In this document: one piece after another, positions 18,188 to 32,416 of the stretch | Layout of the letters: each line of letters begins with the position of its first letter | How positions within the stretch are numbered: the stretch's first letter is position 1 | Origin: Nitriliruptorales bacterium | Lineage (GTDB): Bacteria > Actinomycetota > Nitriliruptoria > Euzebyales > Egibacteraceae | DNA length: 37,459 nucleotides | Assembly (NCBI GenBank): GCA_007133145.1 | Contig: SLNF01000317.1 | Span: 1 to 37,459, forward strand | Direction of reading: 5' to 3' | Notes under the pieces: model-generated | Seen by the model: the letters and a program-made list of their open reading frames with translations, nothing else | Database searches by the model: none | Told to the model about the DNA's origin: nothing | Position numbers and translations under genes: made by a program

Positions 18188-18247
18188 GGTCCTGCCTTCC
18201 TGCGGTCGTCGCGCATCGGCTGTCTGGCTGCTCGGGCGCTGCCGCCC

Positions 18248-20281
18248 TCACGCCTTCCGTGGCGTGTCGGCGAGGACCTGGCGGGCTTTGTGGGTGAGGT
18301 GGTCGGGGGTGAAGCCGCGTTGGGCGAGCAGGTCGCCGCCTGGTCCGGAGGCGCCGTAGTCGGTGACGGCGTGGATGGCGCCGTGCTCGCCGGTCCATTG
18401 GTGCCAGCCCAGGGGGCTGGCGGCTTCGATGGCCAGCCGGGCGGGCACCGCGGGGGGGATGACCTCGTCGCGGTAGGTGTGGGGTTGGGCGGCGAAGCGC
18501 CGCCAGGACGGCAGGGAGACCACCCGGGTGGGGATGTCGTCGTCGGTTTCGAGCCGTTCGGCGACCTCGACGGCCAGGGCGACCTCTGAGCCTGAGGCCA
18601 GCAGCAGCAGCTGCGGGTCGCCGCCGGCGGCTTCGCGCAGGATGTAGCCGCCGCGGGCCAGCGCCTCGGCTGGCTGACCGTGGGAGCGGTCCAGCGCGGG
18701 CACCCCCTGGCGGGTCAGCACCAGCGCGGTCGGCCCGTCGGTACGCTCGAGCGCGGCCCGCCACGCCTCGATGGTCTCCGCGCCGTCGGCGGGGCGGATG
18801 ACATCAAGGCCGGGGATCGCCCGCAGCGCGGGCAGGTGCTCCACCGGCTGGTGGGTCGGCCCGTCGCCGCCCACCCCGAGGGAGTCGTGGGTCCAGACGT
18901 AGACCACCGGCAGCCCCATCAACGCCGCGAGCCGCACCGCCGGGCGCATGTAGTCGCTGAACACCAGGAACGTCGCCGCGAACGGGTTGAGGCCGCCGTG
19001 CGCGGCGATGCCGTTGACGATCGCGCCCATCGCATGCTCACGCACCCCGAAGGCGATGTTGCGGCCGACCTGCTCCGCTGAGAGCGTCGGCTGCCCCGGC
19101 AACGTCGTCAGGTTCGAGCCGGCCAGGTCCGCCGACCCGCCGACCAGCCCCGGCACCCGCTCAGCCAACGCCGCGATCGCCTTCTGCGAGGACTTGCGGG
19201 TCGCCTCGTCGACCGTCTCGCCGGCCAGGGCGTCCAAGCCTTCGTCCCAGCCCTCGGGCAGCGGCGCCCCCGTCGGGGAGGCCAGTGCTGCCGCCAACGC
19301 CGGGTCACGTCGCTCAAGCTCCTCGAAGCGCTCCTGCCAGGCTTGCCGCGCCGCCCGGTGCTCGCCTACCCGCGCCTGCCAGCGCTCGGTGGCCCCCTCA
19401 GGCACCACGAACGACGACCCAGGATCGAACCCGAACGCCCGCTTGGCGCCCGCCACCGCCTCCGCACCCAGCTTCGCGCCATGCGCCGCCGACGTGCCCT
19501 CCTTGCCCGGCGCCCCGTAGGCGATGACGCTGCGCAGCCGGATCAGCGTCGGCCGCGCCGACTCCGCCTGCGCCTGACGGTACGCCCCAGCGATCGCCTC
19601 CCGATCATTGGCGTCGGCGACCTCGAGCACCTGCCAGCCATACGCCGCATACCGCGCGGCGACATCCTCGGTGAACGTGATCTCCGTCGACCCGTCGATC
19701 GTGATCCGATTGTCGTCATAGACCACCACGAGCTTGCCCAGCCCCAGATGCCCCGCCAAGGACGACGCCTCCCCCGAGACCCCCTCCATGAGATCGCCGT
19801 CGCTGGCAAACACCCACGTCCAATGATCCACCAGCTCGGGCCCGGCGCGCTCCGCCAACAGCCGCTCAGCGACCGCCATGCCGACCGCGTTGCCGACCCC
19901 CTGCCCCAACGGCCCCGTCGTGGTCTCCACCCCCGGGGTATGCCCCCGCTCGGGATGCCCTGGCGTGGCCGATCCCAACTGCCGCTGCGACTTCAGATCC
20001 TCAAGCGAGACGTCATAGCCGGTCAGATGCAACACCCCGTACTGCAACACCGACGCATGGCCCGCCGACAGGACGAACCGATCACGATCCGGCCACCACG
20101 GATCAGCCGGATCGAACCGCAGAAACCCCGACCACAACACGAACGCCGCCGGCGCCAACGCCATCGCCGTGCCCGGATGCCCATCCCCCGCCCGCTCAAT
20201 CGCATCCGCCGCCAACAACCGCAACGCATCAACCGCAAGAGTGTCGGGGTCGCTCACATCGTGGGCGTGGATCTCTGGCAT
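18248..20281 (-). CDS. tkt: Transketolase
   Basis: Lies within ORF 18248..20569. The internal ATG at 20281 has GAGGA upstream. Shows GHPGTAMALAP, SAGHAS and the GDG/ThDP motif DGDLMEGVS. The 96-codon N-terminal extension in the track is Arg/Pro-rich and non-homologous. Confidence 0.93.
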   Translation of the reverse strand: MPEIHAHDVSDPDTLAVDALRLLAADAIERAGDGHPGTAMALAPAAFVLWSGFLRFDPADPWWPDRDRFVLSAGHASVLQYGVLHLTGYDVSLEDLKSQRQLGSATPGHPERGHTPGVETTTGPLGQGVGNAVGMAVAERLLAERAGPELVDHWTWVFASDGDLMEGVSGEASSLAGHLGLGKLVVVYDDNRITIDGSTEITFTEDVAARYAAYGWQVLEVADANDREAIAGAYRQAQAESARPTLIRLRSVIAYGAPGKEGTSAAHGAKLGAEAVAGAKRAFGFDPGSSFVVPEGATERWQARVGEHRAARQAWQERFEELERRDPALAAALASPTGAPLPEGWDEGLDALAGETVDEATRKSSQKAIAALAERVPGLVGGSADLAGSNLTTLPGQPTLSAEQVGRNIAFGVREHAMGAIVNGIAAHGGLNPFAATFLVFSDYMRPAVRLAALMGLPVVYVWTHDSLGVGGDGPTHQPVEHLPALRAIPGLDVIRPADGAETIEAWRAALERTDGPTALVLTRQGVPALDRSHGQPAEALARGGYILREAAGGDPQLLLLASGSEVALAVEVAERLETDDDIPTRVVSLPSWRRFAAQPHTYRDEVIPPAVPARLAIEAASPLGWHQWTGEHGAIHAVTDYGASGPGGDLLAQRGFTPDHLTHKARQVLADTPRKA

Positions 20282-20299
20282 CGTCGTGGTCCTCGCTCG

Positions 20300-20379
20300 T
20301 GTCCTGGCCGACGATGTCGGCGGGTCCCTTGTCCTGGCCGGCGCTGTCGGTGGGTCTCGCATCGCGGTGTCGCATCGCG
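20300..20379. repeat. Two adjacent tandem duplications in the tkt 5' region: 30 nt x2, then 13 nt x2
   Basis: The 30-nt units at 20300-20329 and 20330-20359 share 25/30 positions. The 13-nt units gtctcgcatcgcg (20354-20366) and gtgtcgcatcgcg (20367-20379) share 12/13. Confidence 0.85.
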
Positions 20380-20592
20380 CACGAGACGCGCCGCGCCGCG
20401 CACGCAACGACGCTACCGCTCCGTGGCCTGTGGTCCAAGAGCAGCTCGGTCTCACGAGACCCTTTCGGTATCGTCGACCAAGGGTGTGCGATCCGACAGA
20501 ACCGCTGTGCGAAGCGCCAGGCCTGGTACCGTGCGGGTGCACCGAGGCGCGCAGGGGCGCGAGAGGCACAGGTGTGCGGACTCCGGCGGGTG

Positions 20593-21405
20593 ATGGCGAT
20601 GGCAGGCGAGACGGGCGAAGGGGAGCGCAGCCCCCAGGAACGCCAGGACGACATCCGCGAGCGCATCCTCGCGCAGGGTTTCGTGCGCGTCAGCGAACTC
20701 GCCGCGGCGCACGCGGTGAGCACGATGACGATCCGGCGGGACCTCGACGTCCTCGAGGAGCAGGGCTGGGTCCGCAAGGTCCGCGGCGGCGCGACCGTCG
20801 AGCCGTCCGCCTTCTACCACGGCGACGTCCGCCACCGCATGCAGACGATGACCCGCGAGAAGCGTGCGGTCGCCGCCCGCGCCGTCGAGCTCGTCGAGCG
20901 CGGCCAGACGGTCATGCTCGACGAGAGCACGACGGGTTTCGGGCTTGCCCAGCTGCTGCCGACCCGCCGCCCGGTGACGGTCATCACGAACTTCCTGCCC
21001 TCGCTGCAATTGCTCAGCCGCCAACCCGGGGTCGACCTCATTGCGCTCGGCGGGTCCTACAAGCCTTCCTACGACGCCTTCCTCGGCCCGGGTACCGCCG
21101 ACTCGGTGGGGTCGATGACCGCCGACCTGCTCTTTGCGTCGACGACGGCGATCACCGATGGCGCCTGCTACCACCGCTCGCAGGAGACGATCCTCGTCAA
21201 GCAGGCGCTCATGCGTGCCGCCGCGCGCAAGATCCTGCTCGTCGACAGCGCGAAGTTCGGGCGCCGGGCGGTGCACCACCTCGCCCCGCTCGAGGCCTTC
21301 GACGTCGTCATCGTCGACCGTGGCCTCGACGAGACGCACCTCGCCGACCTCCGCGGACGCGACGTCGAGGTCGTCCTCGTCGACGTCGACGAGGACGAGG
21401 CCTAG
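20593..21405 (+). CDS. DeoR/GlpR-family transcriptional regulator
   Basis: Lies within ORF 20299..21405, with ATG at 20593. Shows the N-terminal HTH (RERILAQGFVRVSELAAAHAVSTMTIRRDLDVLEEQG) and a DeoR C-terminal sugar-phosphate sensor region. Confidence 0.88.
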   Translation: MAMAGETGEGERSPQERQDDIRERILAQGFVRVSELAAAHAVSTMTIRRDLDVLEEQGWVRKVRGGATVEPSAFYHGDVRHRMQTMTREKRAVAARAVELVERGQTVMLDESTTGFGLAQLLPTRRPVTVITNFLPSLQLLSRQPGVDLIALGGSYKPSYDAFLGPGTADSVGSMTADLLFASTTAITDGACYHRSQETILVKQALMRAAARKILLVDSAKFGRRAVHHLAPLEAFDVVIVDRGLDETHLADLRGRDVEVVLVDVDEDEA

Positions 21406-21504
21406 CCGGCAGCGGGCTCCCGCTCCGCCTCGCAGGCGACCCCTTCCGCGCCGCAGTGCCCGCGTGACTGTGCGTTCAAATGTTCGTGGCGACACGAGAA
21501 ATGT

Positions 21505-21533
21505 TTGATATCGCACAGAGGCTGTGCTAACTT
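21505..21533 (+). promoter_or_regulatory. Candidate sigma-70-type promoter: TTGATA, 17-nt spacer, TAACTT
   Basis: TTGATA lies at 21505-21510 and TAACTT at 21528-21533, in a locally low-GC stretch. The spacer holds a perfect inverted repeat GCACAG-AGG-CTGTGC (21512-21526). This is pattern-based only. Confidence 0.4.
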
Positions 21534-21554
21534 GCCGCTCCTCACGAGCGATGT

Positions 21555-21592
21555 CCCGCCATCACGCGCCAGCGATGCCGCGTGGTGGCGGG
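21555..21592 (+). promoter_or_regulatory. 14-bp leader stem-loop abutting the lysR-type gene RBS
   Basis: The arms cccgccatcacgcg (21555-21568) and cgcgtggtggcggg (21579-21592) form 13 Watson-Crick pairs plus one G-U, with a 10-nt loop. The RBS GGAGAGGG starts at 21595. Confidence 0.4.
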
Positions 21593-21609
21593 CATGGAGA
21601 GGGTCGGCG

Positions 21610-22626
21610 ATGGTCGAGCTCCGGCAGCTGCGCTACTTCGTCGCGGTGGCCGAGGAGTTGCACTTCGGTCGCGCGGCGACCCGCCTGCAGATGACCCAGC
21701 CGCCACTGAGCCGGCAGATCCAGGTTCTCGAGCGCGATCTCGGCGTCGAGCTCTTCGTGCGCGGCCGCTCGGTGGCGCTCACCCCCGCCGGACAGGCGCT
21801 GCTGCCGCGCGCCCGACGCGCCATCGATGCCGCCGAGGGTGCAGTCTCCGCCGCACGCGACGCCGTGGACGGCTTGGCGCGGCGACTGCGGGTCGGGTAC
21901 CCCGCGGGTTGGGTGCCGGCCCCGGTGCGCGAGGCCCTGCGACGCGTCGCCGCGAGGGTGCCCGAGGTCGACATCGACCTCCGTCTCGGGCACGCGCGGG
22001 CGCATGCCGACGCGCTGCGGGCCGGCGACCTCGACGCTGCGTTCCTCCACAGCAACGGTGAGGTCGGCAGCACGCTCGCCTCTCGGATCGTCGCCGTCGA
22101 GACCGTCGTCATCGCCCTTCCGGCACAGGCGCCAGGCCCCGCCGATGCGCGGCGTCCGCTCGCCGGGGTCGACGCGCTGCTCCTGCCCGCGGCCGAGGTC
22201 GACCCCTGGCTGCGTGACGTGCTGCTCGAGGTCGCCGTCGCCGCCGGTGGTGACACGAGCGAGGTCGCCGATGTCCCGTCGATGGAGTCCGCGCTGCCCG
22301 CGGTGGCTGCCGGCCTCGGCTGGGCACTCGTCACGCAGTCGCTCGCCGCGAGCGTCGAGGCGCGCGGAGTGCGCTTCGAACCCCTCGCCTGCCCGCCTCC
22401 GTGCAGGGTGGCCTCCCACGTCGTGTGGTCGGCCGGCGCCGTGAGCGGACCGTTGCGGCACTTCCTCGACGCCTGCGGCGAGGCCGAGCGCCAGCGGGTC
22501 ACCGCTGAGCGGGCGCTCTCGGCGGTGTCCGCTCCGTCTGCCGGGGAGGTGGGCTCTCGAGGCCGCCGCGCAGGCCGGGAGCCCGCACCGGCGACGCTGC
22601 CGGCCACCGCGGGCGGGAGGCGGTGA
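21610..22626 (+). CDS. LysR-family transcriptional regulator
   Basis: Lies within ORF 21505..22626, with ATG at 21610. Shows the classic N-terminal LRQLRYFVAVAEELHFGRAATRLQMTQPPLSRQIQVLE. Confidence 0.88.
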   Translation: MVELRQLRYFVAVAEELHFGRAATRLQMTQPPLSRQIQVLERDLGVELFVRGRSVALTPAGQALLPRARRAIDAAEGAVSAARDAVDGLARRLRVGYPAGWVPAPVREALRRVAARVPEVDIDLRLGHARAHADALRAGDLDAAFLHSNGEVGSTLASRIVAVETVVIALPAQAPGPADARRPLAGVDALLLPAAEVDPWLRDVLLEVAVAAGGDTSEVADVPSMESALPAVAAGLGWALVTQSLAASVEARGVRFEPLACPPPCRVASHVVWSAGAVSGPLRHFLDACGEAERQRVTAERALSAVSAPSAGEVGSRGRRAGREPAPATLPATAGGRR

Positions 22627-23519
22627 CGGCGATGCGCAGCGAGGACCCCACCGACCGCGCAGCCCACCTTCGCGAGCCCGACCGTCTGTATCCGGCGTAC
22701 GTGTTCGATCTCGATGGGACGATCTATCTGGGTGAGGGGCTGCTGCCGGGTGCTGAACGGCTGATCACCGAGCTGCGCCGGCGGGGCATCCCGGTGCGGT
22801 TCCTGTCGAACAACCCGACGAAGGACCCTGAGCAGTACGCCGAGAAGCTCACCCGCCTGGGGTTGCCCACCCCGGTGGGCGACATCGTGAACACCGTGGT
22901 GACGATGACCCGCTGGCTGCTCGAGCACGCCCCCGGCCAGGTCGTGTTCCCCCTCGGCGACCCGCCGCTCATCCGGGCGTTCGAGCGGGCGGGCATCCCG
23001 ATGTCGGAGGATCCCGCCGAGATCGACCTCGTCGTCGCGAGCTACGACCACGGCTTCGACTACCGCAAGCTGCAGATCGCCTTCGACGCGTTGTGGTTCC
23101 ACCGGCGGGCGCGGCTCATCGCCACCCACCCGGACCGGTTCTGCCCCTTCCCGGGCGGGCGGGGTGAGCCCGACGTCGCGGCGGTGGTCGCGGCCATCGA
23201 GGCGTGCACCGGGGTGCGCTGTGAGCAGCACGTCGGCAAGCCCGACCCGGCGATGCTGTCGTTGGCCTTGGCCGACCTCGACGTCGACCCTGCTGAGGCG
23301 GTGATGACCGGGGACCGGCTGGCCACCGACGTGCGGTTGGCCCGCAACGCCGGTGCCGCCGGCGCGCTCGTGCTCACCGGCGACTCCGACCTCGACGACC
23401 TCGCCGCCACCGCGCCTGAGCACGCCCCCCACTACGTCCTCGACCGCATCGACCAGCTCATGCCGCGGCGTCTTCGCGAAGAGCTCGGCTGGGACGACGA
23501 CGCCCCCTCCCCGACCTGA
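22623..23519 (+). CDS. HAD-superfamily hydrolase, subfamily IIA (NagD-like sugar phosphatase)
   Basis: ORF 22623..23519. Shows motif I FDLDGTIY, SNNPT, and GKPDP with GDRLATD. The GTG start overlaps the LysR stop (GTGA); an alternative ATG lies at 22632. Confidence 0.82.
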   Translation: MTAMRSEDPTDRAAHLREPDRLYPAYVFDLDGTIYLGEGLLPGAERLITELRRRGIPVRFLSNNPTKDPEQYAEKLTRLGLPTPVGDIVNTVVTMTRWLLEHAPGQVVFPLGDPPLIRAFERAGIPMSEDPAEIDLVVASYDHGFDYRKLQIAFDALWFHRRARLIATHPDRFCPFPGGRGEPDVAAVVAAIEACTGVRCEQHVGKPDPAMLSLALADLDVDPAEAVMTGDRLATDVRLARNAGAAGALVLTGDSDLDDLAATAPEHAPHYVLDRIDQLMPRRLREELGWDDDAPSPT

Positions 23520-23583
23520 CCGCCCGCGCGGCGCCCGCGCGCCTGCGCACCCCGCCGACGACGCACCGACAAAGGAGCCGACG

Positions 23584-25146
23584 ATGACCGAGGCAAGCAA
23601 GACCGGACCGTTCCTCATGGGGATCGACATGGGCACGGAGAGCTGCCGCGTGGGGGTGTTCGACACCGCCGGGCGGCCGCTGGCCTTCGAGGCCACGCCG
23701 TACCAGACCTCCTACCCGCGGCCAGGGTGGGCCGAGCAGGACCCCGACGACTGGTGGGCGAGTCTCGTCGCCTCGGTCAAGGGCGCGCGCGAGCGCGCGG
23801 GGGTGAGCCCCGAGGACATCGCCGGCATCTCCTACGACGCGACGACGCTCACCCTCGTGGCGACCGACCGTCGCGGCCAGCACCTGCGGCCGGCGATCAT
23901 GTGGATGGACGTGCGCGCCTCCGACCAGGCCGAGCGCATCGGCCGCTCCGAGCACCCCGTGCGAGCGGTCAACGGCGGCGGCCCGGTCTCCGCGGAGTGG
24001 TACCCGAGCAAGTCGCTGTGGCTCAAGGAGCAGGAGCCCGAGACCTACGAGCGCGCCGAGCGCCTCGTCGACTGCGCCGACTGGATCACCCACAAGCTCA
24101 CCGGGCGCTGGACCTTCAACGTCAACACCGCGGCGGTGCGCTCCTACTACAACCGCGACCTCGGCGGCTGGCCCACGGACTTCTACGAGGAGATCGGCCT
24201 CGGCGACATCTTCGACAAAGTCCCCGAGGAGGTCTGCGACCTCGGCACGCCGCTCGGGGGGCTCTCGACCGAGGCGGCCGCCGAGCTCGGGCTGCGCAAG
24301 GGCACGCCGGTGGCGCAGGGTCCCGGGGACGCCTGGGCCGCGCAGATCGGCCTCAACGTCGTCAAGCCCGGCAAGATGGCGCTCATCACCGGCTCCTCCC
24401 ACGTCCTCATCGGCCAGCACGACGAGTCCGTCTCCGGCCTCGGCTTCTTCGGCGCCTACCCCGAGGCGGTCATGCCGGGGCAGTACACCGTCGAGGGCGG
24501 GCAGGTCTCTTCGGGGTCGGTGCTCAAGTGGTTCAAGGACCAGTTCATGACCGAGGCCATCGCCGAGGCCGAGACCGCCGGTGTCAACCCCTACCACCTC
24601 CTCAACAAGCGGTCCGCGGAGATCCCCCTCGGCTCGGAGGGCCTCATCGTCAACGAGTACTGGCAGGGCAACCGCACCCCCTACACCGACCCGCTCGCCC
24701 GCGGGATGATGTGGGGCTTCAGCCTCCGCCACACCCCCTTCCACATCTACCGGGCCATCCAGGAGGGCGTGTGCTACGGCACCGCGCACATCCTGCGGGC
24801 GATGGCAGCCGCCGGCACCGACGTCCACGAGTTCGTCGCCGCCGGCGGTGCGACGAACAGCCGCTTCTGGACGCAGATGCACGCTGACGTCACCGGGGTG
24901 CCGGTCACCCTCACCGAGGTCGGCGACGCCGCGGTCCTGGGCTGCGCGATCCTCGCGGCCGCCGGCTCCGGCGTCCACGGTGGGGTCGCCGAGGCCGCCG
25001 AGGCGATGGTCCACGACACCGAGACCCTCCAGCCCGACCCCGAGGCGCACGAGGCCTACCAGTTCTACGTCGACAAGTACGTCGACGCCTATCCGCAGAT
25101 GCGCGGGCTCATCCACGACGTCGTCAAGCGCGTCGGCGAGGCGTAG
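23584..25146 (+). CDS. FGGY-family carbohydrate kinase (pentulose/tetrulose-kinase-like, about 520 aa)
   Basis: Lies within ORF 23353..25146. ATG at 23584 has AAGGAG at 23572-23577. Shows GIDMGTESCRVGVFD, PGWAEQDPDDWW, and FGGY C-domain motifs (GGATNSRFWTQMHADVTG). Confidence 0.88.
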   Translation: MTEASKTGPFLMGIDMGTESCRVGVFDTAGRPLAFEATPYQTSYPRPGWAEQDPDDWWASLVASVKGARERAGVSPEDIAGISYDATTLTLVATDRRGQHLRPAIMWMDVRASDQAERIGRSEHPVRAVNGGGPVSAEWYPSKSLWLKEQEPETYERAERLVDCADWITHKLTGRWTFNVNTAAVRSYYNRDLGGWPTDFYEEIGLGDIFDKVPEEVCDLGTPLGGLSTEAAAELGLRKGTPVAQGPGDAWAAQIGLNVVKPGKMALITGSSHVLIGQHDESVSGLGFFGAYPEAVMPGQYTVEGGQVSSGSVLKWFKDQFMTEAIAEAETAGVNPYHLLNKRSAEIPLGSEGLIVNEYWQGNRTPYTDPLARGMMWGFSLRHTPFHIYRAIQEGVCYGTAHILRAMAAAGTDVHEFVAAGGATNSRFWTQMHADVTGVPVTLTEVGDAAVLGCAILAAAGSGVHGGVAEAAEAMVHDTETLQPDPEAHEAYQFYVDKYVDAYPQMRGLIHDVVKRVGEA

Positions 25147-25168
25147 GAACGACGGAGAGGAGCAGCCG

Positions 25169-25636
25169 ATGACCACGATCGGGATCGGCGCCGACGATGC
25201 TGGCGCCCCGCTGAAGGAGCACCTCGCGGCCTACCTGCGCGAGCTCGGCTACGAGGTCGTCGACTACGGCAACGCCGAAGGGGACGACGAGGACTACCCC
25301 GACGTCGCCGAGCAGGTCGCCGAAGGGGTGGCCTCCGGCGCCCACGAGCGGGCGTTGCTCGTCTGCGGCACCGGCCTGGGCATGGCGATCACCGCCAACA
25401 AGGTGCCCGGTGTGCGGGCGGCCACGGCCCATGACGCCTACTCCGCCGAGCGTGCCCGCAAGTCCAACGACGCGCAGGTGCTGACGATGGGCGCCCGCGT
25501 CATCGCGCCGCAGGCCGCCGAGGTCGTGCTGCAGCACTGGCTCGACTCGGAGTTCGCCGGCGGCGGCTCGGCCCCGAAGGTGGCGAAGATGAACGCCGTC
25601 GAGGCCCGCCAGCGCGGGACCGCCGGCAACGACTGA
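25169..25636 (+). CDS. RpiB/LacA/LacB-family sugar-phosphate isomerase
   Basis: Lies within ORF 24848..25636. ATG at 25169 has GGAGAGGAG upstream. Shows IGADDAG...LLVCGTGLGMAITANKVPGVRAA...NDAQVLTMGARV. Confidence 0.88.
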   Translation: MTTIGIGADDAGAPLKEHLAAYLRELGYEVVDYGNAEGDDEDYPDVAEQVAEGVASGAHERALLVCGTGLGMAITANKVPGVRAATAHDAYSAERARKSNDAQVLTMGARVIAPQAAEVVLQHWLDSEFAGGGSAPKVAKMNAVEARQRGTAGND

Positions 25637-25641
25637 GCCCA

Positions 25642-25681
25642 CGGGTGGTCGGCCGCGGGGACCCCGGTGGCCGACCACCCG
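25642..25681 (+). terminator. Stem-loop immediately after the RpiB-family gene
   Basis: The arms cgggtggtcggcc (25642-25654) and ggccgaccacccg (25669-25681) form 13 perfect base pairs. The loop contains a further GGGG-a-CCCC pairing. Confidence 0.55.
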
Positions 25682-25869
25682 GGCATCGTCGGTCCGGCCG
25701 ATGGCCGCGGCCGAGCACCACGCGAGGCGTCGCCACCGCCCGGGGAGGCCCACGAGGCCTGCCCACTTCCGCCGCCACCGCGAGATCGACGAGCAACTGA
25801 AGCCGCCGATGCACCGGGTCGCCGCGCACCTGCGCGACGGCGAGGGCGAGGCGCGAGGAGGGGTGACCG

Positions 25870-27213
25870 ATGACGAGTGAACGGATCGAGCGGGCTCTTG
25901 CGCACGCGACGCACACGACGGCGGTGCGCTTCGAGTCGGGGGCGCTCGCGGCGGTCGGTGAGACCTTCGCCGCGAGCTTCCCCGGCGCCGGGGCGCAGAT
26001 CGTCGCCGACGGCAACACCGAGGCCGCGGCCGGCCAGGCGGTGAGGGCGAGTCTGCGTGAGGCTGGCGTCGGCCTCGAGGAGGGGCTCGTCTTCCCTGCT
26101 CGCCCGACGCTCTACGCCGGCTATGAGCGCGTGCCGGAGATCGTCGAGGTACTCGAGGGCAGCGAGGCGGTTCCCGTCGCCGTCGGCAGCGGCACGCTCA
26201 ACGACCTCGTCAAGCGTGCGGCCTTCGAGCTCGAGCGACCGTACATGGTCGTGGCGACCGCTGCGTCGATGGACGGCTACGCCGCCTACGGGGCGTCGCT
26301 GGCCAAGGACGGGCACAAGCAGACGCTGTCGTGTCCGGCGCCCCGGGCGGTCGTCGCCGACCTCGACGTGCTCGCCGCCGCGCCGGCGGCGATGACCGCC
26401 TCGGGCTACGGTGACCTCCTCGGCAAGGTCACCGCCGGGGCGGACTGGCTGTTCGCCGACGCCCTCGGCGTCGAGCCGATCGACGACTTGTCCTGGGGGT
26501 TGGTGCAGGAGCCGTTGCGCGCCTCGATCGGCCGGCCCGCGGCTTTGGCCCACGGTGACCTCGGGGCCATGGAGTCGCTCGTCGAGGGGCTCGTGATGTC
26601 GGGGGTGGCGATGCAGGCCTACGCCTCCTCGCGCCCCGCCTCGGGTTCGGAGCACCAGTTCAGCCACCTCTGGGAGATGGAGGGTCTCGGCCGCGACCTC
26701 GACCCTCCCCTGTCCCACGGCTACAAGGTCGGCCTCGGCTCGATCGCCATCGCCGCGCTCTACGAGCGGCTGCTCGAGCGTGACCTGTCGGCCCTCGACA
26801 TCGACGCCTGCCGCCACGCCTGGCCGAGCTTCCCCGATCTCGAGACGCGAGCCCACGCAGCCCACCCGCTGCTCGGCGACGTCGCCGTCGCGCAACTCGC
26901 CGGCAAGTACGTCGACGCCGACGGGCTCGCCGACCGCCTCGAGCGGCTCACCGTGGCCTGGCCCGCCCTGCGCGAGCGGCTCGCCGGCCAGTTGCTGCCG
27001 GCGACCGAGTTGCGCGACATGCTCGCTGCGGCCGGCTGCCCCACCACCCCCGAGGAGGTCGGCCTGACCCGTGAGGAGCTCAAGGCCACCTACGCGCGCT
27101 CGCAGATGATCCGCTCGCGCTACACCGTCCTCGACGTTGCCGTCGAGACCGGCCTGCTCGAGCCCTGCGTCGAGGAGCTCTTCGCCCCCGGCGGCTACTG
27201 GGCGCAACACTAG
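25870..27213 (+). CDS. sn-Glycerol-1-phosphate dehydrogenase-like protein (Fe-ADH_2 / AraM-EgsA family)
   Basis: ORF 25870..27213 with GAGGAGGGG upstream. Shows VAVGSGTLNDLVKRAA, AAPAAMTASGYGDLLGK and GSEHQFSHLWE, which match the family's nucleotide and metal-site patterns. Confidence 0.82.
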   Translation: MTSERIERALAHATHTTAVRFESGALAAVGETFAASFPGAGAQIVADGNTEAAAGQAVRASLREAGVGLEEGLVFPARPTLYAGYERVPEIVEVLEGSEAVPVAVGSGTLNDLVKRAAFELERPYMVVATAASMDGYAAYGASLAKDGHKQTLSCPAPRAVVADLDVLAAAPAAMTASGYGDLLGKVTAGADWLFADALGVEPIDDLSWGLVQEPLRASIGRPAALAHGDLGAMESLVEGLVMSGVAMQAYASSRPASGSEHQFSHLWEMEGLGRDLDPPLSHGYKVGLGSIAIAALYERLLERDLSALDIDACRHAWPSFPDLETRAHAAHPLLGDVAVAQLAGKYVDADGLADRLERLTVAWPALRERLAGQLLPATELRDMLAAAGCPTTPEEVGLTREELKATYARSQMIRSRYTVLDVAVETGLLEPCVEELFAPGGYWAQH

Positions 27214-27284
27214 TGCGGAAGGGGGCCGACCGGCCGGCCTGAGTGCGACTCGGCGTGCTCAGGTCAAGACCGCGACTCCGCAGC

Positions 27285-27608
27285 CTCGGCTGCGGCCGTG
27301 AGGAGCTCGACGGCGCGGTCACGGTCCTCTCGTACATGTCGTTGGTCGACCGCTGCGTCGAGGCGGCCGAGCAGGAGGGCGTCAAGCGCACCAACCGCGT
27401 GCACGTCGTCGAGCAGGGCTCGGCGGGCACGTGCTACGGCGGGTGGCTCGGCGACGAGATCAGCGGGCGCCTCTTCGACTGGCCCGACGCCCCCGTCGGC
27501 CGGGTCCACGGCAGCGAGTCCTCGCCGAGCATCTCCAAGAGGCTCGAGGCCTCGTCGCTCGCCGACGTCGACGAGATCGTCGCGGGTCTGCGCGAGGTCC
27601 AGTACTGA
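27285..27608 (+). pseudogene. Remnant of a 2-oxoacid (pyruvate/acetoin/BCKA) dehydrogenase E1 beta subunit; C-terminal domain only, with an internal deletion
   Basis: ORF 27243..27608 reads ...DGAVTVLSYMSLVDRCVEAAEQEGV/KRTNRVHVVEQGS...FDWPDAPVGRVHGSESSPSISKRLEASSLADVDEIVAGLREV. This matches only the last ~100 residues of E1 beta, and the ...EVIDLR..PLD... segment appears to be missing. No E1 alpha gene is present. Confidence 0.6.
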
Positions 27609-27643
27609 GTCGGGGACCGCCCGAGAACGACGCCAGGAGACTG

Positions 27644-28251
27644 ATGATGGCGAGCATCCTGCGCCTGCCGGGCGTGTGCGCCGACGCCGACGACGCGGTC
27701 ATCGAGGAGTGGGTCGTCGAGTCCGGCGCCAGCGTCAAGGCCGACGACATCCTCGCGATGGTCGAGACCGACAAGGCCGTCGTGGAGATCCCCCACAGCT
27801 CGCTGCGCAAGGCCATCGCGAGGCGCCTGCAGGCCAGCGTGCGCGAGGCCCCGCACTCCTTCATGCGGGCGACCATCGACACAGGCGCGCTCGCGGCCGT
27901 CCGGGCGGAGCTCCACGAGGGCGCCGCGCAGGTTCGCGAGCTCGCGGGCCGCGCCCAGGAGGGCAGGCTGCGTCAGCACGAGCTCGAGGGGGGACGTTCA
28001 CGGTGAGCAACCTCGCCATGTTCGGCGTCGAGGGGTTCAGCGCGATCATCAACCCCCCGCATGCCGGGATCCTCGCGGTCGGCGCGACGCGGCAGGGGCC
28101 GGTCGTCGACGCCGATGGGGCGCTCGCGGTGGGCACCGTCCTCTCGCTGACCCTCTCGGCCGACCACCGGCCCATCGACGGGGTCGTGGCCGCCCGGTGG
28201 CTCACGCGCCTGCGCCACCTCCTTGAGCATCCCCTACAGATCCTTACGTGA
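27644..28251 (+). pseudogene. Remnant of a dihydrolipoamide acyltransferase (E2): partial lipoyl domain joined to catalytic-domain fragments, plus a frameshift
   Basis: The RBS AGGAGA and ATG 27644/27647 are followed by the lipoyl motif VETDKAVVEIP. This runs directly into the catalytic-domain start HSSLRKAIARRL...PHSF. The frame switches inside a G6 run (27988-27993), joining ...RLRQHELEGG to TFTVSNLAMFG...INPPHAGILAVG...SADHRPIDG (ORF 27298..28251). Confidence 0.65.
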
Positions 28252-28393
28252 TCGTGCATGACCGTACCCATGCGGTAGGATCACCGACAGGATGGGACAA
28301 ACCGTTACATCCACATGAAGGGTGAATGGCTCGGGCGGACAGAGGTCGACCACGACGCAACGACGACGGCTCTGCTCAAGGGATGTGGGGTCC

Positions 28394-29128
28394 ATGGCAA
28401 CGCAGCTTGACCGCGACGCGGCGACACCGCTGTACGTGCAACTGACCGACATCCTTCGCGACGAGATCGAGCGTGGGCTCTGGGTGCCCGACCGCAAGAT
28501 CCCCTCCGAGAACGAGTTGCACCGCACCTACGGCATCAGCCGCATGACCGCCCGGCAGGTCATCGGCCAGCTCGTCAACGAGGGCCTGCTCTACCGTGTG
28601 CAGGGCAAGGGCACCTTCGTCGCCCCGAACAAGATCTCCACACGCTCGCCGGCCTACGCGGGCATCCGGGAGCAACTCGAGGAGCTCGGCTACACGACGA
28701 AGACGACGCTGCTGAGCCTCGAGCAGGTCGCGGCCGACCGGGCCGTGGCGAAGAAGCTACGCCTCGATGACCACGCGCCGGTCTTTGCGATCCGTCGCCT
28801 GCGCTCGGCCGATGGCGTCCCGCTGAGCCTCCATGAGTCCTACGTTCCCGTGGCGCTCGCACCGGACCTCGACGAGCACGACGTCACCAACGAGCAGCTC
28901 TGCGTCGTCCTCGCGGAGCACTACGGCCTCACGATGGGGCACGTCAGGGAGACCCTCGAGATCCTCACGGCCCCGCCCGGCACCGCCGAGCAGCTCGAGG
29001 TGCGCGCCGGTGCCCCCCTGCTCATGCTGCAGCACTCGATCGCCACGCCCGAGGGCCGGATCTTCGAGTACGCGCGGATTGCCGTCCGGGGCGACAAGGT
29101 CCGCCTTCACATGGAGTACGACCTCTAG
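28394..29128 (+). CDS. GntR-family transcriptional regulator, HutC subfamily (UTRA effector domain)
   Basis: Lies within ORF 28322..29128, with ATG at 28394. Shows PLYVQLTDILRDEIERG...KIPSENELHRTYGISRMTARQVIGQLVNEGLLYRVQGKGTFV, followed by a UTRA-like C-terminus. Confidence 0.88.
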   Translation: MATQLDRDAATPLYVQLTDILRDEIERGLWVPDRKIPSENELHRTYGISRMTARQVIGQLVNEGLLYRVQGKGTFVAPNKISTRSPAYAGIREQLEELGYTTKTTLLSLEQVAADRAVAKKLRLDDHAPVFAIRRLRSADGVPLSLHESYVPVALAPDLDEHDVTNEQLCVVLAEHYGLTMGHVRETLEILTAPPGTAEQLEVRAGAPLLMLQHSIATPEGRIFEYARIAVRGDKVRLHMEYDL

Positions 29129-29153
29129 ACCCCCGTCGACTTCCGGTGGCGGC

Positions 29154-29924
29154 TCACGCCGCGAGCAGCCGCCGCAGCGAGGCGAGGTCGTGGAACCCCT
29201 CGGTGTTGCGCACGTCGGTCCCGGCGATCACCGTCGCAGGCTGACCCGGGTCGCCGAGGCTGTCGACGACGGTGGCGGCGCTGGGGAAGGCCTCGTCCTT
29301 CGTGAAGTCGTTCACCGTTACGAGGTGGGTCAGGCCTGCGCGCTCGGCCGCGGTGGCGCCGGGCCGTGAGTCCTCGATGACGACCGTGCGGGAGCGGTCG
29401 AGTCCCACCTCGGCGAGCGCGAGCTCGTAGATGTCGGGGTGGGGCTTCTTGCGCTCGACGATGTCGCCGGCGAACACCCCGCCCATGCGCTCGACCGCGT
29501 CGTCGCCGACGACGCTGCGCACGACGGCCTCGACGCTGCGCGGCGAGGACGTCGATGCCACCGCGACCCGCCAGCCCTCGTCGAGCGCGGCGTGGACGAG
29601 GCGACGCACGCCAGGCCGGCCCGGCATGGCGCCGGCGTCGACGAGCTCGACGTAGACCTCGCTCTTGCGGCGGTGCAGCGCGAGGACGTGCTCCTCGAGC
29701 GCCTCACCGCTGCCGAGTCCGAGCTCGGGGTGCTGTGCGAAGTAGGTCCGGAGGCGCTCCTTGCCGCCGGGGACGTCGAGCAGCTCCCGGTACTCCTCGA
29801 CCGACCAGGTGAGGTCGTAACCGAGGTCGGCGAAGGCCCGGTTGAAGGCGACGAGGTGCCCGTCACGCTCGGTGTCGGCGATGGTGCCGTCGCAGTCGAG
29901 TAGGAGCCCGTAGCGGTCACTCAC
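29154..29924 (-). CDS. HAD-superfamily hydrolase, subfamily IA (CbbY/beta-phosphoglucomutase-like phosphatase)
   Basis: C-terminal part of ORF 29154..30515. GTG at 29924 overlaps the aldolase stop (GTGA). Shows LLLDCDGTIADTE, VASTSS, KKPHPDIY and EDSRPG. Confidence 0.82.
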   Translation of the reverse strand: MSDRYGLLLDCDGTIADTERDGHLVAFNRAFADLGYDLTWSVEEYRELLDVPGGKERLRTYFAQHPELGLGSGEALEEHVLALHRRKSEVYVELVDAGAMPGRPGVRRLVHAALDEGWRVAVASTSSPRSVEAVVRSVVGDDAVERMGGVFAGDIVERKKPHPDIYELALAEVGLDRSRTVVIEDSRPGATAAERAGLTHLVTVNDFTKDEAFPSAATVVDSLGDPGQPATVIAGTDVRNTEGFHDLASLRRLLAA

Positions 29925-30805
29925 GCTCCGGCCCTCCCCGCCGCCCGCACGGCCTTGCCCTCGCAACCGAAGAGCACGAGGTGCTCGGCGATGGCCTCGC
30001 GGACCCCGTCGAAGACCGCATCGAGGAGCTTGATCGGCTCGTGCTTGCCGGTGCGCTCGGCCTCCTCGAGGTAGGCGGCGGCCGAGGAGGTGTAGGCGAG
30101 CTTGAGCGCGGTCGAGACGTTGATCTTCGCCACGCCCGCCTCGATGAAGGTCGCGAAGTCCTCGGCGGTGAGTCCCGTGCCGCCGTGGAGCACGAGCGGC
30201 AGATCGGTGAGGGCGCGGAGCTCGCGCGCACGGTCGAAGCGCAGCCTCGGTGCGGTCTTGTACATGCCGTGGGCGGTGCCGAGGGCGGGCGCGAGGAGGT
30301 CGGCACCGGACGCGTGGGCGAAGTGCACGAGGCGCTCGACGTCGTAGGGCTCCATCTCCTCGTCCGAGCCGACGTCGTCCTCGACCCCCGTGATGTTCTC
30401 GATCTCGCACTCCACCGAGGCGCCGAGGGCGTGCGCCTCCCCGACGACCTCGGTGGTCTCGCGCAGCGCGTCGTCGTAGCCGCGGTCGGAGGCGTCGAAG
30501 AGCACCGAGGACCATCCGGCCTCGAGGGTCTCGGTGATGACGGAACGGTCGGGGCAGTGGTCGAGGTGCAGGGTCACCGGGACGCTCGCAGCCTCCGCGA
30601 CGGTGCGGACCGTGCTCTCGAGGAGGGCCGAGCCCATGCTGCGCACGGTCTTCACCGACGTCTGGAGGATCACCGGTGCGCTGACCCGCTCGGCGGCGGC
30701 GACCACCGCGCGCACCGAGACGTCGTCGACGACGTTGACCGCGGCCACGGCGTAGCCGTCGTCCCGGGCGGTCCTCACCACCTCGAGTGTCGTGGCCAGT
30801 GGCAT
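29921..30805 (-). CDS. Class II ketose-bisphosphate aldolase family protein (FbaA/KbaY/GatY-like)
   Basis: C-terminal part of ORF 29921..31513. ATG at 30805 has GGAGAGGAGAGG upstream. Shows ILQTS, HLDH and LVLHGGTG. Confidence 0.88.
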   Translation of the reverse strand: MPLATTLEVVRTARDDGYAVAAVNVVDDVSVRAVVAAAERVSAPVILQTSVKTVRSMGSALLESTVRTVAEAASVPVTLHLDHCPDRSVITETLEAGWSSVLFDASDRGYDDALRETTEVVGEAHALGASVECEIENITGVEDDVGSDEEMEPYDVERLVHFAHASGADLLAPALGTAHGMYKTAPRLRFDRARELRALTDLPLVLHGGTGLTAEDFATFIEAGVAKINVSTALKLAYTSSAAAYLEEAERTGKHEPIKLLDAVFDGVREAIAEHLVLFGCEGKAVRAAGRAGA

Positions 30806-30854
30806 CTGCCTCTCCTCTCCCGGCACGCCGCGGCGTGCGTCCTGCTCGGTCGTG

Positions 30855-31665
30855 TCAGTCCGCCGCGTCACGTGCGCCGGCCCGTGCGCGCTGCACCTCG
30901 GCGGCGGTGGCGAGGAACGTCTCCGGATCGAGGCCCGCGCGCCCGAGGAAGATACCCTGCGGCACCGGCAGCGATGCCGCCACGGCGGCGTCGGCGATGT
31001 CGGAGAAGGTGCCGGGGCGGGCGCTGCCGCCGTAGAGCACGCGCGTCCGCCGCACATGGCGGGTCGCGAGCTCGCGGATGCTCGCCACGGCCTCGACGAC
31101 ATGGCCGCTGGGCGCCGGGTCGGTCTGCCCGATCGCCCACGTCGGCTCGTAGGCGATGACGAGCTCACCGTGGTCGGGCAAGCGCGCGAGGCCGACCTCG
31201 AGTTGCTGGGACCACAACCTCTCGGCACGGGGGCCCGGCTCAGGCTCACCGACGATGAGGATCGGCACGAGGCCCGCGGCGGCGGCCCGCGCGATCTTGT
31301 CGGGCACCGCCGCCGACTCCTTGGGGGCTGCGCCGGACGCGCTCGGGGTGCCCGACCATGACGTAGCGCACCCCGAGCTCGGCGAGGAGCTCGGCGGAGA
31401 CCTCCCCGGTGAAGGCCCCGGGTGGGCTCGCCGAGACGTCCTGCGCCCCGAGGGCGACCCCGGTCGCGACGAGCTCGGCGCCGAGCACCGGGATGAGGGG
31501 AAACGCCGGGCACACGTAGAGGCCCTCGTCGTCGACCTCCCCGGCCTCGGCCGCTCCCGCCACCCGCTGGCCCCAGCGACGGGCGACCGTGAGGTCGAAG
31601 GAGCTCTTGGAGCTACGGCCCACGAGCGTCTGCGGCAGCACGTCCCGCTTCACCCTTCCGCTCAT
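30855..31665 (-). pseudogene. Triosephosphate-isomerase-family gene (TpiA2/EryH/LerI-like) interrupted by one frameshift
   Basis: The N-terminal part is at the end of ORF 31246..32169 ([22 protein letters not shown]...[27 protein letters not shown]). The C-terminal part is ORF 30855..31307 (...LVIAYEPTWAIGQ...VLYGGS...). The frames meet at the G5 run 31323-31327. The total span is 811 nt (3n+1), so removing one base restores ...[22 protein letters not shown]... Confidence 0.7.
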
Positions 31666-31704
31666 CGATTCCCTGCGTCGCCAACATACCCTGTGATGTA
31701 CGTT

Positions 31705-31714
31705 CCTGTACAGG
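31705..31714. promoter_or_regulatory. Perfect 10-bp palindrome CCTGTACAGG, a candidate operator in a divergent promoter region
   Basis: Read directly. It lies in a locally AT-richer stretch (aacataccctgtgatgtacgttcctgtacagg), with a second TGTAC 12 nt upstream, between the TIM-like start (31665) and the GlpD-like start (31816). Confidence 0.3.
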
Positions 31715-31815
31715 CAGTGGAGGACCGCGGGCGTCGCGCTCAGCGCCGCCGGGCTGGTGGCGCGGCGCCGTCGGGTTGCGCCCGTCCACCTCGAGGCGAA
31801 GGAGCGGTGGTTCGG

Positions 31816-31976
31816 ATGACGGGCATCAGCCGGGCACGACCGGCCTACCTCGCAGCCGGACGGCCCCTCGACGTCGCCATCGTCGGGGGCGGGATCAACG
31901 GCGTGGTGATCGCCCGCCACGCGGCGATGCGCGGCTCTTCCTCGGGCTGTTCGAGAGGCACGACTTCTCCTCGTCG
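31816..31976 (+). pseudogene. 5' fragment of an FAD-dependent glycerol-3-phosphate dehydrogenase-like (GlpD/EryB-like) gene
   Basis: AAGGAG at 31799-31804 and ATG at 31816 precede [40 protein letters not shown] (Rossmann GGGxxG). After a frameshift near 31930 it continues as [13 protein letters not shown]. Similarity ends near 31976. Confidence 0.6.
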
Positions 31977-31984
31977 CTCTGCTG

Positions 31985-32277: not shown

Positions 32278-32416
32278 CGGCACGGTTCGCCGCCACTCGA
32301 GGTGGACGGCCTGGGCGGGCCCTGAGGTGCCCCCCGGATGCCAGCAGGACCGTCGTGGCACGGTCATGGCCAGGCGACGGGGCAATCGGGGTGCACGGTG
32401 GGCCGAGACCGTTGCC

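Follow-up and report, generated by a model that had tools for sequence, protein, structure and literature searches.

What does a carbohydrate kinase of the FGGY family do beside a dehydrogenase that resembles the enzyme G1PDH (glycerol-1-phosphate dehydrogenase)? This question was raised by an earlier note on contig SLNF01000317.1 of the Nitriliruptorales assembly GCA_007133145.1 (the window, meaning the whole 37,459-nt stretch analysed), in which the two genes flank a gene for an RpiB-family isomerase at 23584–27213, with a stub of a second kinase gene and a second dehydrogenase gene of the same families further downstream. The intact set is best explained as the core of a catabolic operon that is conserved across Actinomycetota and stands under DeoR/LysR control beside tkt-tal, and the coupling of FGGY and dehydrogenase genes in it is a genuine feature, conserved and so far uncharacterised. 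Our answer on function is tentative, possible though somewhat short of probable: the kinase would act first, followed by an L-polyol-1-phosphate dehydrogenase of the G1PDH fold and then by an isomerase or aldolase, with erythritol the best single guess at the substrate. What the sequences establish is which genes are present, how widely the operon is kept, the decay nearby and the purifying selection on the intact genes; every substrate and the reaction order we infer.

The source organism is an uncultured soda-lake actinobacterium close to metagenome-assembled genomes (MAGs) of the Egibacteraceae; proteins of the window operon are 76–93% identical to those of MAG L169, and L085 and L086, contigs of Egibacteraceae-type MAGs, are also close. 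G+C content of the window is 73%, and real genes were sorted from shadow open reading frames (ORFs) by third-position GC (GC3) and identified with Pfam and NCBIfam. The operon and its upstream neighbours are laid out as follows.

17060–18247, minus strand: tal (Pfam TAL_FSA, 261.8 bits), divergent from the regulator and operon
18248–20569, minus strand: tkt (TIGR00232, 805 bits against a cutoff of 682), divergent from the operon; true start probably near 20270
20629–21405, plus strand: DeoR-family regulator (Pfam HTH_DeoR and DeoRC); the ORF opens at 20299, with the HTH from ORF residue 115
21505–22626, plus strand: LysR-family regulator (Pfam HTH_1 and LysR_substrate), with a 4-nt overlap between its end and the start of the HAD-IIA gene
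22623–23519, plus strand: HAD-IIA phosphatase of the NagD/AraL type (Pfam Hydrolase_6 and Hydrolase_like; TIGR01460, 109.5 bits against a cutoff of 100.15)
23584–25146, plus strand: FGGY carbohydrate kinase, 520 aa (Pfam FGGY_N and FGGY_C)
25169–25636, plus strand: RpiB-family sugar-phosphate isomerase, 155 aa (Pfam LacAB_rpiB, 167.5 bits)
25635–25685, plus strand: strong hairpin directly 3′ of the RpiB stop (minimum free energy −47.5 kcal/mol, z = −3.56, 0 of 200 shuffles as stable)
25870–27213, plus strand: AraM/G1PDH-type dehydrogenase of the Fe-ADH_2 family, 447 aa, intact (PF13685, 112.9 bits); hereafter copy 1

The kinase, isomerase and dehydrogenase genes thus lie on the plus strand as the earlier note had them, by GC3 and by Pfam/NCBIfam. 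All three belong to the intact set as claimed; the HAD-IIA gene directly upstream, which is the first gene of the set and ends 64 nt 5′ of the FGGY gene, had been overlooked. The LysR gene is also present in a related locus (L003).

For the window FGGY the best NCBIfam models all fell below cutoff: ribulokinase (288 against 428 bits), XylB (272 against 380) and pentulose kinase (260 against 409). Judged by these scores the protein is neither GlpK nor AraB, and no curated model gives its specificity. The RpiB protein scored above the cutoff of the generic RpiB subfamily model NF004051 (172 against 135 bits) and below those of the actinobacterial housekeeping RPI model (142 against 168) and of the D-erythrulose-4-phosphate isomerase (EryI/DerI) model NF051858 (161 against 240). 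Pfam and NCBIfam found no AraB-type L-ribulokinase in the window. The hairpin has no U-tract and is followed by a spacer of ∼185 nt with an AGGAGG ribosome-binding site 5′ of the dehydrogenase gene; between the RpiB and dehydrogenase genes it might serve for attenuation, for stabilising the mRNA or for termination. No consensus promoter or terminator appeared in a scan of 20200–28400. Among population variants, synonymous and non-synonymous changes numbered 24 and 3 in the FGGY gene (the 3 being conservative) and 3 and 0 in copy 1; because the variants are nearly all synonymous, the intact operon is under purifying selection.

The earlier note had called for co-occurrence statistics on the Fe-ADH_2 clade and FGGY kinases in actinobacterial genomes, and the enrichment it foresaw is there. 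We surveyed the 80 best dehydrogenase loci, counting neighbours within 5 kb, in two groups: group A (32 eligible loci) comprises Actinomycetota with a few Chloroflexota and Bacillota, and group B (45 loci) Bacteroidota, Verrucomicrobiota, Planctomycetota, Acidobacteriota and others. An FGGY gene whose product is at least 45% identical to that of the window was found at 23 of the 32 group A loci, in 14 of them adjacent and on the same strand, and RpiB and HAD-IIA genes at 19 and 21. A second survey was anchored on the kinase, in 80 species with orthologues 56–76% identical to the window FGGY, and counted neighbours within 8 kb. The dehydrogenase was present in 67 of the 80 species (84%), HAD-IIA in 68 and RpiB in 63, followed by a multi-transmembrane protein of ∼376 aa (46), DeoR (42), an AraB-type ribulokinase (40) and TKT (19). 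By our estimate, only a few percent of random 16-kb stretches would contain an FGGY gene; chance falls far short of accounting for the pairing.

Propionibacteriaceae and Actinomycetaceae show the canonical gene order: DeoR, RpiB, membrane protein, HAD-IIA, FGGY, Fe-ADH_2 and AraB, then TKT. Orthologues of the operon are found in Cutibacterium, Propionibacterium and Acidipropionibacterium. The canonical operon has Fe-ADH_2 as its sole oxidoreductase gene and no aldose isomerase, and its AraB-type neighbour passes the L-ribulokinase models NF003154 and TIGR01234. The ∼376-aa membrane protein (L022:6443–7570 and 45 other loci) gave no match in Pfam, NCBIfam or the PDB. It lies between RpiB and HAD-IIA in the canonical operon, is missing from the window, and may be a transporter from a family not yet described.

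Outside the actinobacteria, Alkalispirochaeta americana (L081, FTMS01000013.1) carries an eight-gene module of SorC, HAD-IIA, RpiB, a split TKT, two FGGY genes and Fe-ADH_2. Transposase genes (rve and DDE) bound it on either side, and its dehydrogenase and that of the window are 76% identical. A spirochaete seems to have received the module horizontally from soda-lake actinobacteria; the operon therefore moves as a unit. Large polyol/triose islands were noted on Rubrobacter plasmids and contigs (L083, L084, L001), with PGI, several FGGY genes, a DeoC aldolase, Zn-ADH, Dak kinase, HAD-IIA, RpiB, GpsA and GlpD, and with one or two Fe-ADH_2 genes of the same clade as copy 1 (clade 1); two same-clade copies within 10 kb, each beside an FGGY gene, do occur there.

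Group B presented a different neighbourhood. The FGGY gene was at 0 of the 45 loci and RpiB at 1, with HAD-IIA at 25. The typical unit (L034–L079; for example L037:9896–13724) consists of Fe-ADH_2, an antiporter of the organophosphate antiporter family (GlpT/PgtP/UhpC-like) and HAD-IIA; GlpT/PgtP-like antiporters were counted at 29 loci, GlpA-like dehydrogenases at 18 and GDPD phosphodiesterases at 9, and DeoR also occurs. This unit is a candidate for taking up and catabolising sn-glycerol-1-phosphate (G1P). Across phyla, the most general partner of the family of copy 1 is the HAD-IIA phosphatase, the AraL-AraM pattern, and not the kinase. The earlier note had proposed a couple of a kinase and an NAD(P)-dependent polyol-phosphate dehydrogenase; it stands to the extent that the couple is conserved in Actinomycetota, often adjacent, with the dehydrogenase as sole oxidoreductase bearing G1PDH residues, and yields to the wider distribution of HAD-IIA and to the empty FGGY count in group B.

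Copy 1 is a member of the Fe-ADH_2 family (112.9 bits on PF13685, gathering cutoff 28) and of the AraM/EgsA structural family, and lies outside the curated G1PDH equivalog, scoring 164.1 bits on NF002022 (NAD(P)-dependent; cutoff 413). A profile of 20 clade-1 proteins searched against the PDB matched 9h4x (E = 3.7e-63), titled 'Ni2+ dependent glycerol-1-phosphate dehydrogenase AraM from Bacillus subtilis', and archaeal G1PDHs at ∼1e-27; glycerol dehydrogenases (GldA) aligned over the N-terminal domain alone. The AlphaFold model of copy 1 (pLDDT 92.7) likewise had 9h4x as its top PDB fold match (TMt 0.82), then 3ce9 and the Methanocaldococcus jannaschii G1PDH structures 4rfl/4rgq (TMt ∼0.8). 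Copy 1 is accordingly modelled as a two-domain dehydroquinate-synthase-like fold, nearest to the solved G1PDHs. Residue conservation was read from an alignment of 81 Fe-ADH_2 family members with AraM and the M. jannaschii enzyme. D182, H262 and H283, the metal ligands, and the stretch S254-R255-P-A257-S258-G259-x-E-H262 are at least 95% conserved among the family members and identical in AraM and the M. jannaschii enzyme. The SRPASG loop would bind phosphate.

Databases list upwards of 5,000 proteins of this large family, ∼450 aa long and for the most part labelled 'glycerol-1-phosphate dehydrogenase'; at least 596 species-level genomes in many phyla have a member. Size and spread match the deep-branching bacterial G1PDH clan of PMC6431249. 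The literature searched held no characterised member of the clade of copy 1 and no account of PF13685/FGGY co-occurrence. To our knowledge, B. subtilis AraM is the only one of the bacterial 'G1P dehydrogenase' homologues whose function has been studied. When the two context groups were compared, 88 columns were at least 90% conserved in both, of which 87 hold the same residue and one is Leu/Phe. With one conservative difference in 88 columns, no specificity-determining positions separate kinase-linked from antiporter-linked enzymes, which probably share the same chemistry and the same or very similar substrates.

These data bear on a plainer account of the locus, which we find rather doubtful. 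The module would be of the ordinary AraM/AraL kind, its dehydrogenase a G1P:NAD(P)+ oxidoreductase interconverting G1P and dihydroxyacetone phosphate (DHAP) and its HAD-IIA protein a glycerol-phosphate phosphatase. It would break down G1P that stems from lipoteichoic acid, from head groups of phosphatidylglycerol or from archaeal lipids, or else release surplus DHAP as glycerol, and FGGY, RpiB and AraB would be co-regulated triose- or pentose-yielding functions, not suppliers of substrate. The nearest homologue that is both characterised and solved is AraM, a G1P dehydrogenase, and the catalytic residues and SRPASG loop are common to copy 1, AraM and the M. jannaschii enzyme. The generality of HAD-IIA across phyla, the kinase-free glycerol-phosphate context of the Bacteroidota, Verrucomicrobiota and Planctomycetota genes, and the near identity of conserved columns between context groups all fit this account, as do the GpsA-, GlpD- and GlpK-type genes near actinobacterial loci and the trio of AraB, AraL and AraM that recurs in related operons. 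The same three genes, we take it, lie together in the B. subtilis ara operon. Bacterial import of G1P is known, its intracellular fate being undescribed (PMC12718374). What the account leaves unexplained is the linkage to a non-GlpK FGGY gene in 84% of genomes, and it leaves the canonical operon without an entry oxidoreductase or isomerase for its two kinases. The G1PDH equivalog score is far below cutoff (164 against 413), identity to proven G1PDHs is ∼31%, and a Halobacterium protein annotated as G1PDH has no G1PDH activity (PMC9700705), so the annotation is unreliable across clades.

Our preferred reading is the kinase-first pathway. The dehydrogenase is probably a step of the pathway of the kinase, because the genes are tightly and often adjacent, because it is the sole oxidoreductase, and because no aldose isomerase feeds ketoses to both kinases. 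A phosphate-ester substrate is suggested because the SRPASG loop is common to both proven G1PDHs and because in group B the antiporter takes the place of the kinase; a polyol phosphate made by the FGGY kinase is then a reasonable substrate for the Fe-ADH_2 enzyme. The kinase would phosphorylate a small acyclic polyol at a terminal hydroxyl. The Fe-ADH_2 enzyme, using a metal and NAD(P), would oxidise the resulting L-polyol-1-phosphate at C2, beside the phosphate-bearing carbon, to a ketose-1-phosphate, by homology with the action of G1PDHs on sn-glycerol-1-phosphate. G1PDHs oxidise C2 of sn- (L-) glycerol-1-phosphate; by nomenclature the C4 homologue would be L-erythritol-1-phosphate, and C2 oxidation would give L-erythrulose-1-phosphate. 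With erythritol as the guessed substrate, L-erythrulose-1-phosphate might then reach erythrose-4-phosphate through isomerases of the TIM/LerI type and then the RpiB/DerI type, or be cleaved by an aldolase to yield DHAP. The HAD-IIA phosphatase may drain or recycle surplus phospho-intermediate, as proposed for B. subtilis AraL.

Several points weigh against this scheme. The 87 identical columns argue for one common substrate, for which G1P is the obvious candidate. Clade 1 is ∼31% identical to the proven enzymes (AraM and archaeal G1PDH), with no activity known for the clade. The curated families nearest to the window FGGY are ketose kinases. RpiB must be preceded by a LerI/EryH-type step, which the canonical operon lacks; the sole TIM-like gene near the window operon, ∼4 kb downstream, is frameshifted. 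Neither HAD-IIA, the universal partner, nor AraB, a frequent neighbour, is explained by the scheme, and no transporter gene was found in the window. The metatranscriptome of the same sample gave only spurious matches of 25–30 nt from unrelated contigs and is uninformative on expression.

The ketose-kinase affinities raise the classical order of polyol catabolism, in which the Fe-ADH_2 enzyme would turn an unphosphorylated polyol (ribitol, arabitol, erythritol or threitol) into a ketose, just as the related glycerol dehydrogenase oxidises glycerol, and FGGY, with AraB, would then phosphorylate the ketose, RpiB and tkt/tal leading into the pentose-phosphate pathway. Ribulokinase, xylulokinase and pentulose kinase are indeed the best curated matches of FGGY, the AraB-type neighbour passes the L-ribulokinase equivalog cutoffs, and glycerol dehydrogenases are structural relatives of copy 1. 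RpiB could here act directly on a ketose-5-phosphate or ketose-4-phosphate with no extra isomerase, and the sequence of steps is that of the tetritol pathways of Mycolicibacterium smegmatis (PMC10733421; PMC12780249). We nonetheless hold this order improbable: the enzyme groups with G1PDHs and not with GldA, whose alignment is confined to the N-terminal domain; it keeps the loop common to enzymes that use phosphate esters; other phyla pair it with an organophosphate antiporter and a phosphatase and no kinase; and the HAD-IIA phosphatase would have no role.

The Halobacterium precedent suggests yet another role for copy 1, that of a small-aldehyde reductase which, like VNG_6270G, would detoxify glycolaldehyde or a similar product of neighbouring aldolase and transketolase reactions. 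Misannotation in the superfamily has thus been documented (PMC9700705), and aldolase and transketolase genes are found in many related loci. The phosphatase partner and the antiporter context would go unexplained, and the phosphate-type loop is conserved; we consider this role very improbable.

By analogy, G1PDH-type stereochemistry (L-polyol-1-phosphate to L-ketose-1-phosphate) would match the L-erythrulose-1-phosphate intermediate of Propionibacterium pentosaceum, which is named as an intermediate of erythritol metabolism in the title of Wawszkiewicz 1968, as cited in PMC10733421. Propionibacteria ferment erythritol and adonitol, and the 1968 biochemical route via L-erythrulose-1-phosphate is still without genes (PMC4437456; PMC12780249): Loux et al. 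(PMC4437456) report that erythritol and adonitol pathways defied reconstruction in P. freudenreichii genomes, though all strains use both, and a 2025 account (PMC12780249) knows just two tetritol routes, the Brucella type and the M. smegmatis type. The operon DeoR-RpiB-membrane protein-HAD-IIA-FGGY-AraM-type-AraB might be a third, so far gene-less tetritol/pentitol route, the 1968 Propionibacterium pathway itself. In that case the kinase would make L-erythritol-1-phosphate, perhaps ribitol phosphate too, and the G1PDH-fold enzyme would produce L-erythrulose-1-phosphate directly, replacing both the flavoprotein EryB and the epimerase EryC of Brucella. Taken as a whole this identification is doubtful.

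The operon is nevertheless a concrete candidate for the missing propionibacterial erythritol-pathway genes, found in culturable Cutibacterium, Propionibacterium, Acidipropionibacterium and Actinomyces. Were the third-route identification true, the deep-branching bacterial 'G1PDH' clan would gain a catabolic role on L-polyol-1-phosphates, sn-G1P included. The near-constant pairing with HAD-IIA, in a kinase or organophosphate antiporter context, points to catabolism or turnover of G1P-type phosphoesters. It is thereby relevant to the fate in bacteria of the 'archaeal' enantiomer of glycerol phosphate, now known to be imported (PMC12718374). If copy 1 is an ordinary G1P dehydrogenase, the finding shrinks to a well-conserved and unremarkable AraL/AraM-type module.

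Downstream of the intact operon lies the second set. Reference sequences for its decayed genes were L085 and L086, mapped by tblastn and DNA comparison. Its lesions were checked in metagenome contigs from soda lakes, alkali sediment and salt lakes (2012 and 2019), which cross every one of them with no gaps. Its genes and remnants are listed below.

27243–27608, plus strand: 2-oxoacid dehydrogenase E1-beta remnant, a C-terminal fragment seen in translations
27755–28248, plus strand: 2-oxoacid dehydrogenase E2 remnant in two frames (three fragments by tblastn with the L085 E2)
28394–29128, plus strand: GntR/UTRA regulator, intact (Pfam GntR and UTRA; 87% identical to the L085 orthologue over 244 aa)
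29154–29924, minus strand: HAD-IA hydrolase, intact (Pfam Hydrolase/HAD_2; 86% identical to the L085 orthologue)
29921–30805, minus strand: class II ketose-bisphosphate aldolase, intact (F_bP_aldolase, 252 bits; 94% identical to the L085 orthologue)
30852–31653, minus strand: divergent TIM-family gene, full length, a pseudogene with one frameshift near 31321
31816–31941, plus strand: first 42 codons of a GlpD-family FAD dehydrogenase gene (aa 1–42 of the 547-aa L085 protein by tblastn), the remainder deleted
32005–32277, minus strand: glycerol kinase (GlpK) stub, with ancestral ATG at 32277, ∼105 codons and at least 3 frameshifts, then the deletion
32479–33699, plus strand: second Fe-ADH_2 (copy 2, clade 2), a pseudogene with two frameshifts (∼32548 and ∼32792) and a 36-aa deletion

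The kinase stub is 59–73% identical to residues 13–97 of the L085 kinase, its intact orthologue, and a NQRET motif is visible in it. The L085 kinase passes the GlpK model NF000756 (647.5 bits against a cutoff of 498), and on these sequence matches the stub is the remnant of a true glycerol kinase. A single deletion of 2,639 bp relative to L085, with its junction at 31970|31971, took the 3′ parts of the convergent GlpD and GlpK genes; the intact GlpD-family orthologue scores 337 against a glycerol-3-phosphate dehydrogenase cutoff of 360, just below. In the TIM-family gene, tblastn placed orthologue residues 1–111 in frame −2 (31653–31321) and 111–254 in frame −3 (31322–30891); the intact orthologue reaches 115 bits on the TpiA model, whose cutoff is 293.

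Copy 2 is read in three frames, covering orthologue residues 1–23 (32479–32547), 24–105 (32549–32794) and 107–440 (32800–33693), and its in-frame 36-residue deletion takes out AGVGD, with the metal Asp, and the ADW segment. Its intact orthologues P0122 and P0123 are 441–442 aa long and 73–74% identical to it; they too carry PF13685, and an intact copy-2 orthologue scores 108.6 bits on NF002022. Accordingly the minus-strand FGGY stub from the ATG at 32277 and a second Fe-ADH_2 frame ending at 33699 are present as described in the earlier note, but the second Fe-ADH_2 gene, taken there as part of a set decayed in its kinase, is itself dead. Of the motifs said to be shared, copy 1 has both (GSGTLNDLVK from 26185 and GSEHQFSH from 26644), and copy 2 has GSEHLMSH at 33115, while a frameshift parts its GSGT (32780) from the DLAK of LRDLAK (32800). 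Clade 2 (P0122–P0143; window 33090–33140) has S-T-A-P-L-S-G in place of the S-R-P-A-S-G loop, with no Arg, and keeps the metal ligands. It adjoins glpK/glpD, with a HAD-IIA gene next on the 3′ side, and may have a different substrate.

Assembly error as the source of the frameshifts was ruled out: metagenome contigs of independent origin repeat the indels and the deletion junction, and so do 4 ORF variants. DNA contigs from three metagenomes cross the TIM-family frameshift site with no gaps, and metagenome contigs cross both copy-2 frameshifts with 0 gaps; a truncated 283-aa copy-2 ORF was found in 4 contigs, and a 13-kb contig (L088) 99.6% identical to the window bears the same lesions. The cluster beside the intact operon is a genuinely decaying wreck of a glpK/glpD-TIM-aldolase cluster together with an Fe-ADH_2 gene of a different clade. 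At its 5′ end, the acetoin/pyruvate-type E1-beta/E2 remnant region spans 27243–28251, where gene calls in L088 are pieces of 90, 119 and 77 aa. In relatives the 2-oxoacid dehydrogenase genes are intact (E2 in L085, a fused E1 in L087) and are kept beside the GntR, HAD-IA, aldolase, TIM and GlpD cluster, in Cellulosimicrobium as well.

Did one couple, then, occur twice in 10 kb, as had been thought? Identity between the two dehydrogenase copies is 28–32%, and GlpK matches the intact FGGY at 25%; these values rule out duplication of one kinase/dehydrogenase set. Clade 1, clade 2, B. subtilis AraM and archaeal G1PDH are four roughly equidistant lineages at ∼30% identity. The supposed recurrence falls away, the second kinase being GlpK and the second Fe-ADH_2 belonging to a clade without the loop Arg; nor is the second pair the same couple, for intact relatives have an EryB-type (GlpD-family) dehydrogenase in that cluster.

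Gene order in L085 and L086 runs E2, GntR, HAD-IA (minus), class II aldolase (minus), TIM-family (minus), GlpD-family (plus), FGGY (minus; the GlpK), Fe-ADH_2 (plus) and HAD-IIA (plus). From the clade-2 Fe-ADH_2 gene these relatives and L169 continue with HAD-IIA, FGGY, RpiB, clade-1 Fe-ADH_2 and a nitroreductase, so that two Fe-ADH_2 genes bracket one phosphatase-kinase-isomerase unit. The window HAD-IIA is 90% identical to the one 3′ of the clade-2 gene in L085. At 22623–33699 the window has the blocks swapped: the block from HAD-IIA to clade 1 lies 5′ of that from the E1-beta and E2 remnants to clade 2, and the clade-2 pseudogene abuts the nitroreductase gene. Tandem duplication and then reciprocal loss, in which the redundant copy decays, could explain the swap.

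Elsewhere in the window, 35254–37434 encodes a GyrA/ParC-type topoisomerase subunit, a divergent paralogue whose best matches among GTDB representatives are only ∼46% identical and give no help in placing the host; an exact 32-mer likewise had no hit among these representatives. Two ORFs with coding-type GC3, at 1345–2709 and 7477–7995, have no Pfam match; the former overlaps a minus-strand aminotransferase-like ORF (374–1603) by ∼260 nt, and one of the two may be mis-delimited.

How does the operon compare with known systems? B. subtilis AraM is the best profile and fold match of copy 1 and has the same metal ligands and SRPASGxEH loop. The HAD-IIA adjacency of the AraL-AraM pair is common to the window operon, and an AraB-type ribulokinase is present in half of the related operons (40 of 80). 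Copy 1 differs in being only ∼31% identical to AraM, ∼55 residues longer (an insertion within the C-terminal helical domain) and below the G1PDH equivalog cutoff, and in its coupling to an additional, non-AraB FGGY kinase and to RpiB, with the membrane protein in related operons. Archaeal EgsA (M. jannaschii, 4rgq and 4rfl) has the same fold and catalytic residues, with ∼31% identity over a core of ∼200 residues alone; it is ∼335–350 aa long and biosynthetic, supplying the lipid backbone, whereas copy 1 sits in a catabolic-looking operon. No link of the family of copy 1 to PcrB-type ether-lipid genes was seen. Halobacterium salinarum VNG_6270G, a member of the wider family wrongly annotated as G1PDH and in fact a glycolaldehyde reductase (PMC9700705), acts on an unphosphorylated C2 aldehyde.

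The M. smegmatis system (EltD/DthD, LerK/DerK, LerI, DerI) is actinobacterial and, like our proposal, finishes with an isomerase of the RpiB type and the pentose-phosphate pathway. It differs in that oxidation acts on the free polyol and comes before phosphorylation, which falls on the ketose (PMC10733421), and the window has no Zn-ADH or Dak gene, genes that do occur in Rubrobacter loci of the family of copy 1. The P. pentosaceum pathway (Wawszkiewicz and Barker 1968) passes through L-erythrulose-1-phosphate, the product expected from G1PDH-type oxidation, and Propionibacteriaceae carry orthologous operons; that pathway is known biochemically, without a link from gene to enzyme, and the window host is a soda-lake actinobacterium, not a propionibacterium.

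The Ery system of Brucella has the logic we propose, from kinase to polyol-phosphate dehydrogenase to isomerases to erythrose-4-phosphate. EryA is its FGGY kinase and EryB its D-erythritol-1-phosphate dehydrogenase. The route proceeds from D-erythritol-1-phosphate (EryB) through D-erythrulose-1-phosphate (EryC), L-erythrulose-1-phosphate (EryH, TIM family) and D-erythrulose-4-phosphate (EryI, RpiB family) to erythrose-4-phosphate (PMC12542623; PMC10733421). An FGGY kinase and an RpiB-family isomerase are common to the window, which also has a TIM-family gene nearby, though frameshifted. EryB is an FAD enzyme of the GlpD family, whereas the window dehydrogenase is an NAD(P)- and metal-dependent Fe-ADH_2 protein, of another fold and with another cofactor; the intact set has no GlpD-family EryB, the sole gene of that family being the 42-codon remnant in the decayed set. 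The opposite enantiomer would be expected for the window enzyme (L-erythritol-1-phosphate to L-erythrulose-1-phosphate), making EryC unnecessary, and Pfam scans found no EryC-like domain in the window. The window operon is not a member of the Brucella Ery system, but it may work like it.

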